Notes under the pieces: model-generated
Told to the model about the DNA's origin: nothing
Seen by the model: the letters and a program-made list of their open reading frames with translations, nothing else
Database searches by the model: none
Made by a program: the position numbers and the translations under genes
Source of the DNA: Chlorobiota bacterium
Lineage (GTDB): Bacteria > Bacteroidota > Ignavibacteria > Tepidaquicellales > OLB5
Assembly (NCBI GenBank): GCA_022616535.1
Contig: JAKEEM010000016.1
Coordinates: 1,683-65,682 of the forward strand
DNA length: 64,000 bases
Direction: 5' to 3'
Shown: one piece after another, positions 30,822 to 35,284 of the stretch
Layout: the number at the start of each line of letters is the position of its first letter
How positions within the stretch are numbered: the stretch's first letter is position 1

Positions 30822-30894
30822 GGACAGGTAGCTCAGTTGGTAGAGCAACGGCCTGAAAAGCCGTGTGTCGCCGGTTCGATTCCGGCCCTGTCCA
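30822..30894 (+). tRNA. trnF: tRNA-Phe (GAA), CCA not encoded
   Basis: Acceptor GGACAGG/CCTGTCC plus A73; D arm GCTC/GAGC; anticodon stem ACGGC/GCCGT with loop CTGAAAA; T arm GCCGG-TTCGATT-CCGGC. Confidence 0.97.
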
Positions 30895-30898
30895 CAAA

Positions 30899-31132
30899 AT
30901 GAAGCAAAAAATTGCAAATACTTATACCGCGGTTTTCGTCAAAGATGGCGATATGTATGCTGCATATGCGGAAGAGCTCCCGGGAGCCAATTCTCAAGGT
31001 AAAACTATAGATGAAGCCAGAGAAAACCTTAAAGAAGCCATTAGCTTGATCATTGAAGCAAATAAAGAGCTTTCCAGAAAATCCGTAAGTAGAAGAAAAC
31101 TTCTTCGGGAGAAAATTCTGGTTAGTCTTTGA
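30899..31132 (+). CDS. hicB: HicB-family antitoxin (short, no obvious DNA-binding domain)
   Basis: YAAYAEELPGANSQGKTIDEARENLKEAI motif. ATG at 30899; the ORF-track start lies inside the tRNA. Confidence 0.88.
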   Translation: MKQKIANTYTAVFVKDGDMYAAYAEELPGANSQGKTIDEARENLKEAISLIIEANKELSRKSVSRRKLLREKILVSL

Positions 31133-31317
31133 AACGAAAAGATTTTATAAAGCTAATCGAAAAACAGGGATGTAAATTTTTAAGAGAAGGCGGAAATCAT
31201 ACAATTTATTATAACCCTTTAGGGAACAAAACTTCTGCAATACCAAGACATCGAGAGATAGGGGATTTTTTATGCAGAAAAATATGTAAAGACCTTTCTA
31301 TTATCTTCAAGAAATAA
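31129..31317 (+). CDS. hicA: HicA-family mRNase toxin
   Basis: LREGGNHTIY and IPRHREI motifs; 4-nt overlap with hicB. Confidence 0.9.
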   Translation: MKRKDFIKLIEKQGCKFLREGGNHTIYYNPLGNKTSAIPRHREIGDFLCRKICKDLSIIFKK

Positions 31318-31375: not shown

Positions 31376-33703
31376 TTGGCTAAAGACACACAAATAGCAA
31401 AAGTCGAAAAAAGAAAGGTTGAGCTTTCCAACCTCAGTAAAGTTCTATACCCCGATGATGATATTGTCAAAGCGCAGGTAATTGAGTATTACCTCAAAAT
31501 TGCACCCACGATTTTAAACCACATAAAAGGCAGGCCTCTATCTCTAGTACGCTTTCCCGACGGAATTTACGGCGAGCAGTTCTTCCAGAAAAACAGACCT
31601 GACTGGGCACCCGAATGGATTGAATACGAAACTCTTGGCAGCGAGGATAAGAAAGATTACATTATCGCAACGGAGGAAGCATCACTGGTATGGCTCGCAA
31701 ATCTTGCCTGCCTTGAGCTTCACCAGATGCATTCAAAAAAACCGAATTACGACAAACCCGATTACATGGTGTTTGACCTCGACCCGCCGGAAGGATTTAA
31801 ATTCGCGGACATTATTGACATTGCGCTTGAACTCAAACCACACCTCGAAAATCACGGCTATCACCCTTTTGCAAAAACTACCGGGGGAAAAGGAATCCAC
31901 GTTGTTGTGCCCATTGAGCAAAAATGGGATTTCCATAAAGTATTTGAAACAGCACAGTTAATAGCAAAACCGTTTGTGGACGAGCGTTCGAAAACTTTAA
32001 CGCTGCAAATAAAAAAAGATGCACGCAAAGGGAGGGTGCTGATCGATATATACAGAATAAGGCAGGGACAATCGATAATTTCGCCTTACAGTCTGAGAGG
32101 AAGAAAAGGGGCACCTGTTTCAATGCCGCTTAAATGGGAACAACTGGAGGATCTAACAAGTCCAACTGAATACAATTTAATTAACGTTCCAGACATCGTA
32201 AAAAATGAAGGCGATGCGTGGGAAGGAATCTCAGCGTACTCAGTCGAGCTCCACACGGAGCGGAGGTCAAAAGCAAAACCACCAAAGAAAACACTAAAGC
32301 CATCAAAAAAATACAAAACACCCGAACAGCTTGAAAAATACTCCAAAAAAAGGGATTTTGCAAAAACCCCCGAACCCGGGTGGGAGATAATTGAGGGCAA
32401 AGGCAGTTCGTTTGTAATTCACCGCCACCACGCATCACGTCTGCATTATGACCTTCGCCTGGAGAAAGACGGTGTATTAAAATCCTGGGCTGTTCCAAAA
32501 GGTCTCCCCCCTTCTCCGGGGGTAAAAAGACTGGCGGTGCAGACCGAAGACCATCCAATGGAATACCTTAAATTCGAAGGGAAAATACCAAAGGGACAAT
32601 ACGGCGGGGGTGATATGTGGGTCTATGCAGGCGGCAAATATGAAATCACAAAAGATAAAAAGGACGGGTTTTATTTCCGGCTGCACAGTCCAGCCGTTAG
32701 CGGCGAATACAGGATATACAAAATCAAGGAAAAGGACTGGCTTTTGGAACGTGTCGATAGACCGCAGGTCGATTGGATTCATGATTTGATTGAACCGATG
32801 CTTGCCCAGCCGAGAAAAGATATTCCTGTTTCGGATTCATTCATTTATGAAGTGAAATGGGACGGTATAAGGGTTATGGTGTCACTTGAGGATGATAAAA
32901 TCACGCTACGGAGCAGGAATAATCTCGATTTAACTGCAAAATTCCCCGAGCTTTTGAATGTGGAAAAATCATTCAGGGCAACTTGCGGGCTGTTTGACGG
33001 TGAGATAGTCTGCCTTGACGAAAAAGGCAGACCTGATTTTAAAGATGTAATTCACCGTATGCAGCGCTCCCACGAGGGAGAAATACAAAGGGCAATGAAG
33101 AAATATCCGGCTTATTGTTATCTGTTTGACATTCTTTATCTTGACGGAAGAGCGGTTGTTAATGAACCTCTGGGGCGCCGCCGCGACTGGCTCAAAGATG
33201 CTGTTAAAAAGGATTCATCATACAGAATAAGCGAAATTGTCGATGACGGCAAAGCATTATTTGCCGCTGCAGGTGAGCTGGGACTTGAAGGCATAATGGC
33301 AAAAGATAAAACCAGCAAATATTATCCCGGCAAAAGAACCGACACATGGTTTAAAATAAAAGTAAGACAAACAGCCGAAAGCCATATCATTGGATATACC
33401 AAAGGCAAAGGCGCAAGAGGTGAGCATTTCGGGGCACTGCACCTTGCTGATTATATCGACGGGGAGCTAGAATACAGAGGCAAAGTAGGAAGCGGTTTTG
33501 ATACGAATATCATTAAAGAAGTCTACGCAGAATTAAAAAAACTCAAAGAAATCAAAAAGCCAATTAGTGAAAAAGTCCTTGATGAAAGCCAGACTATATG
33601 GGTTGAACCGAAGCTTGTTTGCGAAATCGAGTATTCATCTATGACAAAAGACGGCGCATTTCGCGAGTCAGTATTTGTTCGGTTAAGACCTGATTTATAT
33701 TAA
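31376..33703 (+). CDS. ligD: NHEJ DNA ligase D, domain order POL-PE-LIG
   Basis: POL: LVRFPDG, FDLDP, KTTGGKGIH. PE: HHASRLHYDLRLE, SWAVPKG, TEDHP. LIG: YEVKWDGIR, EGIMAK, KIK, KVGSGF. Confidence 0.96.
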   Translation: MAKDTQIAKVEKRKVELSNLSKVLYPDDDIVKAQVIEYYLKIAPTILNHIKGRPLSLVRFPDGIYGEQFFQKNRPDWAPEWIEYETLGSEDKKDYIIATEEASLVWLANLACLELHQMHSKKPNYDKPDYMVFDLDPPEGFKFADIIDIALELKPHLENHGYHPFAKTTGGKGIHVVVPIEQKWDFHKVFETAQLIAKPFVDERSKTLTLQIKKDARKGRVLIDIYRIRQGQSIISPYSLRGRKGAPVSMPLKWEQLEDLTSPTEYNLINVPDIVKNEGDAWEGISAYSVELHTERRSKAKPPKKTLKPSKKYKTPEQLEKYSKKRDFAKTPEPGWEIIEGKGSSFVIHRHHASRLHYDLRLEKDGVLKSWAVPKGLPPSPGVKRLAVQTEDHPMEYLKFEGKIPKGQYGGGDMWVYAGGKYEITKDKKDGFYFRLHSPAVSGEYRIYKIKEKDWLLERVDRPQVDWIHDLIEPMLAQPRKDIPVSDSFIYEVKWDGIRVMVSLEDDKITLRSRNNLDLTAKFPELLNVEKSFRATCGLFDGEIVCLDEKGRPDFKDVIHRMQRSHEGEIQRAMKKYPAYCYLFDILYLDGRAVVNEPLGRRRDWLKDAVKKDSSYRISEIVDDGKALFAAAGELGLEGIMAKDKTSKYYPGKRTDTWFKIKVRQTAESHIIGYTKGKGARGEHFGALHLADYIDGELEYRGKVGSGFDTNIIKEVYAELKKLKEIKKPISEKVLDESQTIWVEPKLVCEIEYSSMTKDGAFRESVFVRLRPDLY

Positions 33704-33812: not shown

Positions 33813-34667
33813 ATGCGTCCAATATGGAAGGGACATATAAGGTTTTCACTGGTTACAATACCAATTTGCATTTATAACGCTATTGAGTCATCGGAAACTA
33901 TCAGCTTTAAGCAGCTTCATAAAGATGATAACGGTCCGATAGGCTATGATAAGCGCTGCAAGAAGTGCAGCAAGATTGTAAAAAACGAGGATATTGTTAA
34001 GGGTTACCAGTATGAGCCCGACCAGTTTGCAATCATTGAACCGGAGGACTTAGCCAAGCTCAAATTAAAAAGTACCAAGGTAATTGAAATTGAGGGATTC
34101 GTAGATTCTTCGGAAGTTCATCCAACACTTTACGATACACCCTACTACGCTGGACCCGACGGCGATGTTGCGGCAAAAACTTTCGCTCTTCTTTGCGCAA
34201 CGCTGGAAGACAGCGGCAAGCTCGGAATCGGGAAAGTCGTAATACGCGACAGGGAGAGCGTCGTTCTGCTTTCTCCCGAGAAAAACGGATTGCTGCTTTA
34301 TAAACTCAGATATCCGAACGAAGTAAGAAAAATATCCGAGGTTCCGAAATTAAACGGCCTGGCCGCAGATAAGCAGCAGCTTAAGCTTGCAAGAACGCTT
34401 GTCGATTCGATGGTGAAGCCGTTTTCGGAAATCAAGTTGAAGGATACTTATAAGGATGCTGTTAAAGAGCTGATTAAAGCTAAAATCGAAGGCAAGGAAA
34501 TTGTTACCTTGGAAGAGGAGGAAAAACCGGTTGTCGATATAATGACTGCTTTGAAGAAAAGCATAGATAACGCGAGCAAGCAAAAGAAGCCAATGAAGAA
34601 AGCAACGGGCACTAAGGCAGCTGAAGTTGTTAAGCCAGCTAAAGCAAAGAAAAGAAAAGCGTCATAA
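33813..34667 (+). CDS. ku: NHEJ DNA end-binding protein Ku
   Basis: MRPIWKGHIRFSLVTIP, VKGYQY, IEIEGFV and YDTPYY motifs; Lys-rich C-terminal tail. Confidence 0.96.
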   Translation: MRPIWKGHIRFSLVTIPICIYNAIESSETISFKQLHKDDNGPIGYDKRCKKCSKIVKNEDIVKGYQYEPDQFAIIEPEDLAKLKLKSTKVIEIEGFVDSSEVHPTLYDTPYYAGPDGDVAAKTFALLCATLEDSGKLGIGKVVIRDRESVVLLSPEKNGLLLYKLRYPNEVRKISEVPKLNGLAADKQQLKLARTLVDSMVKPFSEIKLKDTYKDAVKELIKAKIEGKEIVTLEEEEKPVVDIMTALKKSIDNASKQKKPMKKATGTKAAEVVKPAKAKKRKAS

Positions 34668-34675
34668 ATATATAG

Positions 34676-35284
34676 ATGGCAAATATAATAGAATTTCCCA
34701 TACAAAAGCCGCAGTCCGGGCTGAAGAGAGTAAGTAAAAGCTCTAGAGTTCAGCTTAAGCGAACAAACCAGCTTGATTTATTTTCTCAAAAGTCACCTGA
34801 GACGAATATTTTTGTTATGCCTTCAAGCCTCAGTCCCTTTGAGGAGGCATTAATGCTCGATGAAAAAGGCGACTCAGGAGCGAAAGAGGCTTACCAAAAT
34901 GCAGTTAACATGGAAGACTGCACTGCCGATGCATACTGCAATCTGGGAATACTGGAATATGAGTCGGGCAGCACAATAAAGGCAATCGATTGTTTCACCA
35001 AATCTCTTAAAACCGAACCGAGGCATTTCGAATCGCATTATAACCTTGCAAACCTTTATTCAGAACTCGGCAATCTGCCACTTGCCAAAACGCACTATGA
35101 ATTTGCACGTGAGCTTCAGCCGGATTTTCCGGACATTTGCTTTAATTTAGGACTTGTTTATGCAATGACAAGAGATTTTGAATCGGCTTTGAGAATACTT
35201 TCTGAATATAAGGAAATGGTGACTCCCGAAGAAAGCGAAAACGCTGATAAACTTATTGAAAGCATTAAAAAGCTGACTGGCTAA
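34676..35284 (+). CDS. TPR protein with N-terminal disordered region containing QLDLF
   Basis: ADAYCNLG, ESHYNLANLY and DICFNLGLVY TPR units; starts 8 nt after the ku stop. Confidence 0.85.
   Translation: MANIIEFPIQKPQSGLKRVSKSSRVQLKRTNQLDLFSQKSPETNIFVMPSSLSPFEEALMLDEKGDSGAKEAYQNAVNMEDCTADAYCNLGILEYESGSTIKAIDCFTKSLKTEPRHFESHYNLANLYSELGNLPLAKTHYEFARELQPDFPDICFNLGLVYAMTRDFESALRILSEYKEMVTPEESENADKLIESIKKLTG

Follow-up and report, generated by a model that had tools for sequence, protein, structure and literature searches.

Is bacterial non-homologous end joining (NHEJ) always the work of two proteins? The literature that we retrieved presents it as a pathway of Ku and the ligase LigD, in agreement with the initial annotation of the locus studied here. 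In this locus, which lies in a 64,000-nt stretch of DNA from a Chlorobiota bacterium (GenBank assembly GCA_022616535.1, contig JAKEEM010000016.1; "the window" refers to this whole stretch), ligD and ku are followed by a third gene. It encodes a tetratricopeptide repeat (TPR) protein whose N-terminal tail contains the pentapeptide QLDLF, a candidate binding motif for the beta clamp DnaN, and the initial annotation had suggested that this protein may be an adaptor between Ku/LigD and the clamp. We asked whether the TPR gene belongs to end joining and what its product may do there. As detailed below, we find the TPR gene to be a genuine and conserved NHEJ accessory gene that the searched literature and family models do not describe; a clamp-adaptor mechanism is plausible and is proposed here with reserve.

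The TPR gene is linked to one clade of Ku

The genes ligD, ku and the TPR gene are arranged in tandem on one strand (Table 1). LigD matched the Pfam families LigD_Prim-Pol, LigD_N, DNA_ligase_A_M and DNA_ligase_A_C and, above the cut-off, the NCBIfam model NHEJ_ligase_prk, and Ku matched TIGR02772 (Ku_bact) with 278 bits against a cut-off of 150; with Ku and a multidomain LigD encoded together, the locus is a bacterial NHEJ (Ku-LigD) system. The ku stop codon ends at position 34667 and the ATG of the TPR gene is at 34676, leaving the gap of 8 nt (34668-34675) that had been annotated. This start codon is backed by the N-terminus M-A-[NK]-I-[IL]-x-F-P, which is conserved among the homologs. The spacing suggests that ku and the TPR gene may be co-transcribed; scans for consensus promoters and terminators gave background level only.

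We compared 41 relatives, in which the orthologs of the TPR protein were full-length and 54-81% identical to it. They were present in six of these relatives, exactly those whose Ku is close (72-89% identity), and each time the TPR gene was located directly downstream of ku on the same strand. None was found in the 11 relatives with a distant Ku (~30% identity). Among species-representative genomes, at least 567 related stretches contained full-length orthologs, and the neighbourhoods were studied for the best 80, with genes called from open reading frames and tblastn matches. These 80 loci are distributed over at least eight phyla (Ignavibacteriota, Bacteroidota, Verrucomicrobiota, Nitrospirota, Latescibacterota, KSB1, Calditrichota and "Deferribacteres"). 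The Bacteroidota carriers include Cyclobacteriaceae, Chitinophagales and Ohtaekwangia, as well as two cultured strains, Fulvivirga imtechensis AK7 and F. kasyanovii JCM 16186. Metagenome bins make up most of the carriers in all phyla together, and some of the taxonomic labels are doubtful. Where enough upstream DNA was available, the TPR gene was preceded by a ku gene of the same orientation in 74 of 76 loci; the gap between the two had a median of 50 nt and was at most 150 nt in 67 cases. In the two unlinked loci (L046 and L072), where the TPR gene adjoins DUF3667 and gyrB, as well as in two loci at contig edges (L016 and L083), a Ku of the same clade is encoded elsewhere in the genome. Within the fetched flank, ligD was upstream of ku in about half of the related loci, and across phyla no neighbour besides ku and ligD was conserved.

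An even phylum sample of 401 genomes, 50 of them with Ku and 16 with the TPR gene, gave the same picture. Ku proteins at least 50% identical to that of the window were assigned to clade A (18 genomes) and the others to clade B (32 genomes), while 351 genomes had no Ku. The TPR gene was present in 16 of the 18 clade-A genomes and absent from all 32 clade-B and all 351 Ku-less genomes (0/383 together; Fisher p ~1e-26, uncorrected for phylogeny). The clade-A genome G393 proved to be a 17th carrier, with a diverged ortholog (35% identity) that overlaps the ku stop codon. The coupling to ku that the initial annotation had read from the window was thus borne out by adjacency as well as by co-occurrence. 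The TPR-linked Ku proteins form one clade (support by the Shimodaira-Hasegawa approximate likelihood-ratio test, 99) apart from clade B, and phyla are intermixed within it; the cassette has therefore moved horizontally as a unit. The rarity of the TPR gene in the Verrucomicrobiota sample (1 of 251 genomes) fits such a transfer. We conclude that the TPR gene is inherited and horizontally transferred within a ligD-ku-TPR cassette and is confined to genomes with one Ku clade, and that it is very probably a dedicated accessory gene of one NHEJ lineage. A phage or defence origin was also considered and was rejected, as PADLOC models matched neither the TPR protein nor Ku nor LigD, and no true homolog of the TPR family was found in viral contigs.

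Several loci deviate from the common arrangement or its expected distribution. L086 and L089 come from bins labelled Bifidobacteriaceae and are near-identical to loci in Verrucomicrobiia bins (Ku branch lengths of 0.015-0.03), which is probably due to mis-binning or mislabelling rather than to an actinobacterial occurrence. The single clade-A Ku gene without a TPR partner is found in genome G372; at this locus (L107, G372:C5, 2873-4582), a gene for a nuclease of the endonuclease/exonuclease/phosphatase (EEP) family occupies the TPR position, and ligD overlaps ku upstream. In three loci with clade-B Ku (L098, L099 and L100, from G010, G040 and G013), LigD is encoded by three adjacent genes for a phosphoesterase (~200 aa), a ligase (~330 aa) and a polymerase (~300 aa), as opposed to the fused protein of 775 aa in the window.

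A conserved pentapeptide in the N-terminal tail resembles clamp-binding motifs

The N-terminus of the TPR protein (MANIIEFPIQKPQSGLKRVSKSSRVQLKRTNQLDLF) is basic, with a net charge of +5 for residues 1-50 (family median, +6.5). We modelled the TPR protein alone with AlphaFold2 from a 100-sequence alignment (predicted local distance difference test score, pLDDT, 81; predicted template modelling score, pTM, 0.73). In this model, pLDDT was below 50 at tail residues 1-13, 22-34 and 41-48 and reached at least 50 only at residues 14-21 and 35-40, consistent with the basic, disordered-looking N-terminus noted at annotation. Besides QLDLF, the tail contains two conserved short motifs, ANIIEFP and the basic patch SGLKRVSK (Table 1). 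The latter is the sole tail segment with pLDDT of at least 50 in both models used in this work (63 for the 10-residue block in the model of the TPR protein alone and 58 in the Ku-TPR fusion model described below). QLDLF itself, whose annotated position was right, lies in the predicted disordered part; its last two residues, 35 and 36, exceed the threshold but belong to blocks averaging 41-49. As a side observation, the metagenomic family members P0206 and P0236 have a MerR-type helix-turn-helix domain (PF13411) inserted between the GL[QK]RV patch and QLNLF.

We estimated how often such a match arises by chance, using a rough set of the proteins encoded by this genome (872,000 residues). QL[SD]LF occurs there once against 1.3 expected occurrences, and for the looser pattern Q[LIVM]x[LM]F the count is 37, with 37.4 expected. 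The chance of finding any Q[LIVM]x[LM]F in the 46-position tail is 0.002. That the motif is non-random follows from its conservation across homologs and not from the single match. In an alignment of 100 homologs that are 46-86% identical to the protein of the window, Q32 and F36 never vary (100/100 each), position 2 of the motif (residue 33) is L in 74, M in 16, I in 7, F in 2 and T in 1, position 3 (residue 34) is N in 51, D in 39, S in 5, H in 4 and P in 1, and position 4 (residue 35) is L in 95 and M in 5, which gives the family pattern Q-[LMI]-[ND]-[LM]-F. The column entropy is 0-1.5 bits within the motif and 2.3-3.7 bits in its flanks. Even the 35%-identical ortholog of G393 retains QLNLF. 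We also ran a profile search against 1.84 billion cluster representatives, in which giant multi-TPR proteins dominated the ranking and no usable family size was obtained. Of its 34 short matches, 24 have the strict motif and nine of the remaining ten have variants of it (QLNIF, QLNVF, QLDIF, QLDFF, QANLF and the hexamer-like QLALTF); for the tenth, P0236, the printed N-terminus does not resolve the motif.

The published clamp-binding motif is Q-phi-x-[L/M]-[F/L], in which Gln1, position 4 and Phe5 set the affinity and position 3 is free; QLxLF is its highest-affinity form, and QLDLF is the strongest-binding pentapeptide known (PMC11139829). QLNLF, in turn, is the motif of UmuC (PMC11139829, PMC3716654). 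The aligned TPR homologs agree with this definition, with L, M or I at position 2 in 97 of the 100 homologs and the permitted residues at positions 1, 4 and 5 in all of them, and the initial recognition of QLDLF as a beta-clamp consensus motif was therefore appropriate.

The genome contains a single dnaN gene, which lies at ~49.2-50.5 kb of contig C20 and is not adjacent to the cassette. MutS of the same genome has QINLF 43 residues from its C-terminus, which is the classical clamp site of MutS, and RNase HII (C76:3028-3663) terminates in ...QGELF. DnaE has QSWLF at aa 941, which is presumably the counterpart of the internal QADMF of E. coli DnaE. Because of these three peptides, we conclude that the clamp clients of this organism use the standard motif. 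Similar C-termini were observed in RuvB (C58:21359-22393; ...QNSLFD), Cas2 (C12:39035-39364; ...QQLELF) and a radical-SAM SplB-like protein (C28:16737-17810; ...QQEELFG), all three, like RNase HII, identified by eye. Among these motif carriers, the closest fit to the consensus is that of the TPR protein. No Qxx[LMIV][FLWY] was present in Ku or LigD of the window, which leaves the TPR protein as the sole candidate in the operon for any contact with the clamp.

The TPR domain has an invariant concave face

The TPR protein scored above the cut-offs of the Pfam families TPR_1 (67.7 bits; cut-off 27.8), TPR_2 (57.7) and TPR_11 (54.5), while its NCBIfam matches were all below cut-off; the Pfam and NCBIfam libraries thus returned generic TPR models and no specific family model. 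The AlphaFold2 model shows one degenerate and three canonical TPRs followed by a capping helix, and its nine helices over residues 54-201 fit the "about four TPRs" of the initial annotation. In Foldseek, the model came closest to TPR consensus designs and to the O-GlcNAc transferase (OGT) TPR domain, with a probability of 1.0 and TM (template modelling) scores of 0.5-0.66.

The domain is acidic, with a net charge of -14 (family median, -10; range, -16 to -4). N89, N123 and N157 are invariant and spaced by exactly 34 residues, forming an asparagine ladder at repeat position 6; in OGT, such a position-6 ladder binds extended peptides. D85, C88, I92 and N126 are likewise invariant and E119 is at least 90% conserved. 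These residues concentrate on the A helices, on the concave face, and the latter five correspond to TPR positions 2, 5 and 9, which we take to be the normally hypervariable ligand-contact positions. Such strong conservation of the concave face implies a peptide ligand that is conserved to the same degree.

Two other assignments of the domain were considered and rejected. A carboxylate clamp of the Hop/Sti1 type, which reads EEVD termini, does not fit an acidic domain whose potential partners have basic termini (Ku ends in ...KKRKAS and LigD in ...RLRPDLY). Membership in the XRCC4/XLF/PAXX superfamily is at odds with the Pfam result, which gives TPR families only, and with the all-alpha TPR fold.

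The Ku arm of this clade carries a conserved motif

The alignment of the window's Ku with the solved Ku proteins of M. tuberculosis and B. subtilis ends at residue 256, shortly before the motif KKPMKKATG (Table 1). The family form of this motif is KKPM[EK]KA[KT]G: none of the 67 full-length TPR-linked Ku proteins departs from P260, M261 or G266, and conservation is at least 91% at each of K258, K259, K263 and A264. KKPM[EK]KAxG is located after the minimal C-terminus (DIMxALKxSI) and before a variable lysine-rich tail with a charge of ~+10 over ~30 residues. Clade-B Ku proteins have 256-261 aa and no KKPM motif, and the motif appears to be clade-specific as far as the compared sequences indicate. 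The Ku of G372, which has no TPR partner and sits on a long branch, has lost both the KKPM motif and the lysine tail; this coincidence of motif loss and TPR absence is a correlation from a single loss event. Extended Ku C-termini generally share no significant sequence similarity, and in B. subtilis Ku the basic C-terminal extension controls DNA bridging and threading, whereas the minimal region recruits LigD (McGovern et al., PMC4889933).

A proposed two-ended adaptor and its alternatives

How could the TPR protein act in end joining? We tentatively propose a two-ended adaptor, in which the TPR groove would hold the motif of the Ku arm and QLxLF of the N-terminal tail would bind the DnaN pocket. 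At one end, the acidic four-repeat domain with its invariant concave face would hold a conserved peptide, of which the clade-specific KKPM[EK]KAxG at the start of the lysine-rich C-terminal arm of Ku is the likeliest candidate. We count for this contact the opposite charges of the TPR domain and the Ku tail, the presence of the motif in all 67 TPR-linked Ku proteins despite the general dissimilarity of Ku extensions (PMC4889933), and its loss together with the lysine tail in G372. At the other end, the disordered basic tail would offer Q-L-[DN]-L-F to the hydrophobic pocket of DnaN in the manner of Hda, UmuC, MutS and the polymerases. For this contact we count that the conservation of the motif matches the clamp determinants, with Q1, [L/M]4 and F5 fixed, position 2 aliphatic and position 3 free. 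Ku/LigD would thereby be tethered to DNA-loaded clamps, and our best guess is that the end-joining machinery and the LigD polymerase would be concentrated or retained at breaks near clamp-marked primer-template junctions; a role at replication-associated breaks, as suggested in the initial annotation, would be conjectural. The adaptor could recruit or retain the machinery or hold it back, and its effect on end joining could be stimulating or restraining. With slightly greater reserve still, we suggest that this widespread mobile NHEJ lineage may be a three-protein machine, whose TPR adaptor would grip the Ku motif and plug its QLxLF into the beta clamp.

We modelled Ku and the TPR protein together as one Ku-linker-TPR chain, using 29 loci in which ku and the TPR gene are in one frame and were translated through the stops. 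The QLxLF peptide docked neither on Ku nor on its own TPR domain, which would be expected if the partner of the motif lies outside the Ku-TPR pair, and which proves nothing. Of the adaptor reading in the initial annotation, the ku linkage and the conservation of the motif therefore stand, whereas the binding of Ku/LigD and of DnaN is still a proposal; for Ku and the TPR protein, this model showed no confident docking.

Several observations weigh against an adaptor of this kind. The fusion, which is a weak test that neither supports nor excludes binding, reached a pTM of only 0.38 with no confident docking (for a Ku monomer, without DNA, and with a shallow 29-sequence paired alignment), and both the Ku tail and the TPR N-terminal tail, including QMDLF, had pLDDT below 50 apart from the GLKRV patch. 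Pentapeptides resembling the clamp-binding motif occur at chance frequency throughout the proteome, so that a motif match alone carries little weight. No significant covariation was found between the charge of the Ku tail and that of the TPR domain (Spearman -0.26, p 0.09), and G393 combines a neutral Ku tail with a TPR domain that is still at -12. G372, with a clade-A Ku and no TPR gene, indicates that the gene is not strictly indispensable. Nor is there a precedent in a comprehensive review of clamp partners from 2024, in which NHEJ and LigD go unmentioned (PMC11139829).

All evidence for linkage to ku applies equally to an NHEJ accessory or regulatory factor that does not contact the clamp. 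The tail motifs of such a factor, QLxLF included, could bind Ku, LigD or DNA, or its acidic TPR domain could sequester the basic arm of Ku and so tune threading, bridging or Ku release. Eukaryotic XLF, PAXX and APLF bind Ku through short tail motifs. In the TPR protein, ANIIEFP and GLKRV are two further conserved tail motifs without a known partner, an acidic TPR domain is paired with a basic Ku tail, and the family members with a MerR-type helix-turn-helix in the tail hint at DNA contact; the basic Ku extension, for its part, governs threading and bridging in B. subtilis (PMC4889933). A peptide that binds Ku or LigD would, however, have no reason to mirror the clamp determinants position by position, as the pentapeptide profile does, and AlphaFold placed the motif neither on Ku nor on the TPR domain. 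We regard such a factor as less probable than the adaptor, although it deserves to be taken seriously.

The gene could also be a co-transferred passenger that is only loosely tied to end joining and is held beside ku by the operon structure; it might then encode, e.g., a chaperone, a scaffold for stress responses or a protein that regulates expression of the operon. TPR domains are generic scaffolds, Pfam, NCBIfam and PADLOC found no catalytic or DNA-repair domain in the protein, and at the two loci beside DUF3667 and gyrB the gene is away from ku. Yet even these unlinked copies are in genomes with the same Ku clade, only ku and ligD are conserved as neighbours across phyla, and exclusive co-occurrence with one Ku clade over at least eight phyla, without a single case among the 383 other genomes, makes a passenger improbable. 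That QLDLF is a coincidental match in an ordinary TPR gene with a meaningless adjacency to ku has practically no chance of being correct: the strict motif is indeed no more frequent in the proteome than expected, but this explanation is already contradicted by the invariance of its Q and F in all homologs aligned and by the adjacency of ku in all but two of the informative loci.

Relation to known systems

The cassette shares with the two-component NHEJ systems of M. tuberculosis, B. subtilis and P. aeruginosa, which consist of a Ku homodimer and LigD, the Ku fold and the polymerase, phosphoesterase and ligase domains of LigD. Its Ku also has the minimal C-terminus (D-I-M-x-A-L-K-x-S-I) and the basic extension described for these systems (PMC4889933). 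It differs from them in the third gene, which is fixed in the cassette, and in the invariant KKPM[EK]KAxG of the Ku extension, which is unseen in solved or characterised Ku proteins. Full-text literature searches found no description of a Ku-linked TPR protein or of a connection between NHEJ and the clamp, a 2025 survey of Ku evolution mentions neither TPR proteins nor gene neighbours, and public records name the protein merely "tetratricopeptide repeat protein".

Established beta-clamp clients such as Hda (N-terminal QL[SP]LPL), UmuC (QLNLF), Pol II, Pol IV and MutS have the same Q-phi-x-[L/M]-F pattern in a disordered terminal tail under the same constraints, and many members of the TPR family have QLNLF, identical to the UmuC motif. 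In contrast to these clients, the carrier here is a non-enzymatic TPR scaffold tied to NHEJ, and its clamp binding is a prediction from sequence. The structurally best match, the TPR superhelix of OGT and of consensus designs, has the asparagine ladder at repeat position 6 in common with the TPR protein; with only four repeats and no catalytic domain in the latter, the resemblance concerns the fold class and not the function.

That further proteins may work with bacterial Ku has a precedent in mycobacteria, where Ku has the partners UvrD1 (bioRxiv 10.1101/2023.09.29.560180) and Sir2. Both are enzymes with other cellular roles and, to our knowledge, neither is encoded in a fixed ku operon, whereas the TPR protein is a dedicated, co-inherited scaffold. 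The eukaryotic NHEJ factors XLF, PAXX, APLF and CYREN provide an analogy only, in that they are small non-catalytic factors with disordered, basic, motif-bearing tails acting on a Ku-ligase core. There is no homology, since Pfam finds TPR families alone in the TPR protein, and bacterial Ku lacks the vWA domain and the Ku80 sites that the eukaryotic motifs use.

If the proposed adaptor exists, it would be the first protein to connect end joining in prokaryotes physically with the replisome clamp, and bacteria would have an equivalent of the motif-based accessory factors of eukaryotic NHEJ. A third subunit co-transferred with ku over at least eight phyla would revise the two-protein picture for a whole Ku lineage. 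It would bear on the regulation of the basic arm of Ku, on the relation of end joining to replication or to clamps left on DNA, and on the use of a processivity factor by the LigD polymerase. A factor that alters the efficiency or fidelity of NHEJ would also matter for bacterial genome editing assisted by Ku/LigD. The hypothesis is directly testable, as the motif matches the best-characterised clamp-binding peptide and cultured carriers exist (Fulvivirga); Ku-LigD systems have been reconstituted in E. coli.

Features of the locus and its neighbours

Table 1 Coordinates of the ligD-ku-TPR cassette and of the motifs and domains of its products (positions in the window)
Feature	Position	Strand	Description
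ligD	31376-33703	+	775 aa; order POL (polymerase), 3'-phosphoesterase, ligase; first gene of the cassette
ku	33813-34667	+	284 aa, coordinates including stop; clade-A type
Ku tail motif KKPMKKATG, aa 258-266	34584-34610	+	where the extended, lysine-rich C-terminus begins; proposed to be bound by the TPR groove
Ku-linked TPR gene	34676-35284	+	202 aa plus stop; open reading frame with Pfam TPR matches
N-terminal tail, aa 1-50	34676-34825	+	basic, predicted disordered, three conserved short motifs
Tail motif 1, ANIIEFP, aa 2-8	34679-34699	+	in 100 homologs: position 4, I 73, V 27; position 7, F 80, L 20; position 8, P 68
Tail motif 2, SGLKRVSK, aa 14-21	34715-34738	+	basic patch; G15 91%, V19 89%, K21 83%
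QLDLF, aa 32-36	34769-34783	+	candidate beta-clamp-binding motif; column conservation in 100 homologs (see text)
TPR domain, aa 54-201	34835-35278	+	9 helices, pLDDT 86-96

Directly upstream of ligD and on the same strand is a toxin-antitoxin pair of a hicB-like gene (30863-31132) and hicA (31129-31317), which overlap by 4 nt; this pair was not among the recurrent neighbour clusters of the related loci. On the other side, a convergent gene for an alpha/beta-hydrolase of the Abhydrolase_11 family (PF20408; 35265-35966, minus strand) shares 20 nt with the end of the TPR gene. Homologs of this hydrolase gene occur within a few kb of ligD-ku-TPR in 16 of the 80 loci, including Verrucomicrobiota and Fulvivirga, and it may represent a weaker second association with the cassette. 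In one related locus, L018, ku and the TPR gene are separated by a spacer of 79 nt made up of ATTACAAAT-like units in an inverted array (…ATTACAAATTACAGATTACAAATTACAAAC ATATTTGTAATTTGTAATTTGTAATTTG…), and in that genome the array could be a hairpin or serve as an operator.

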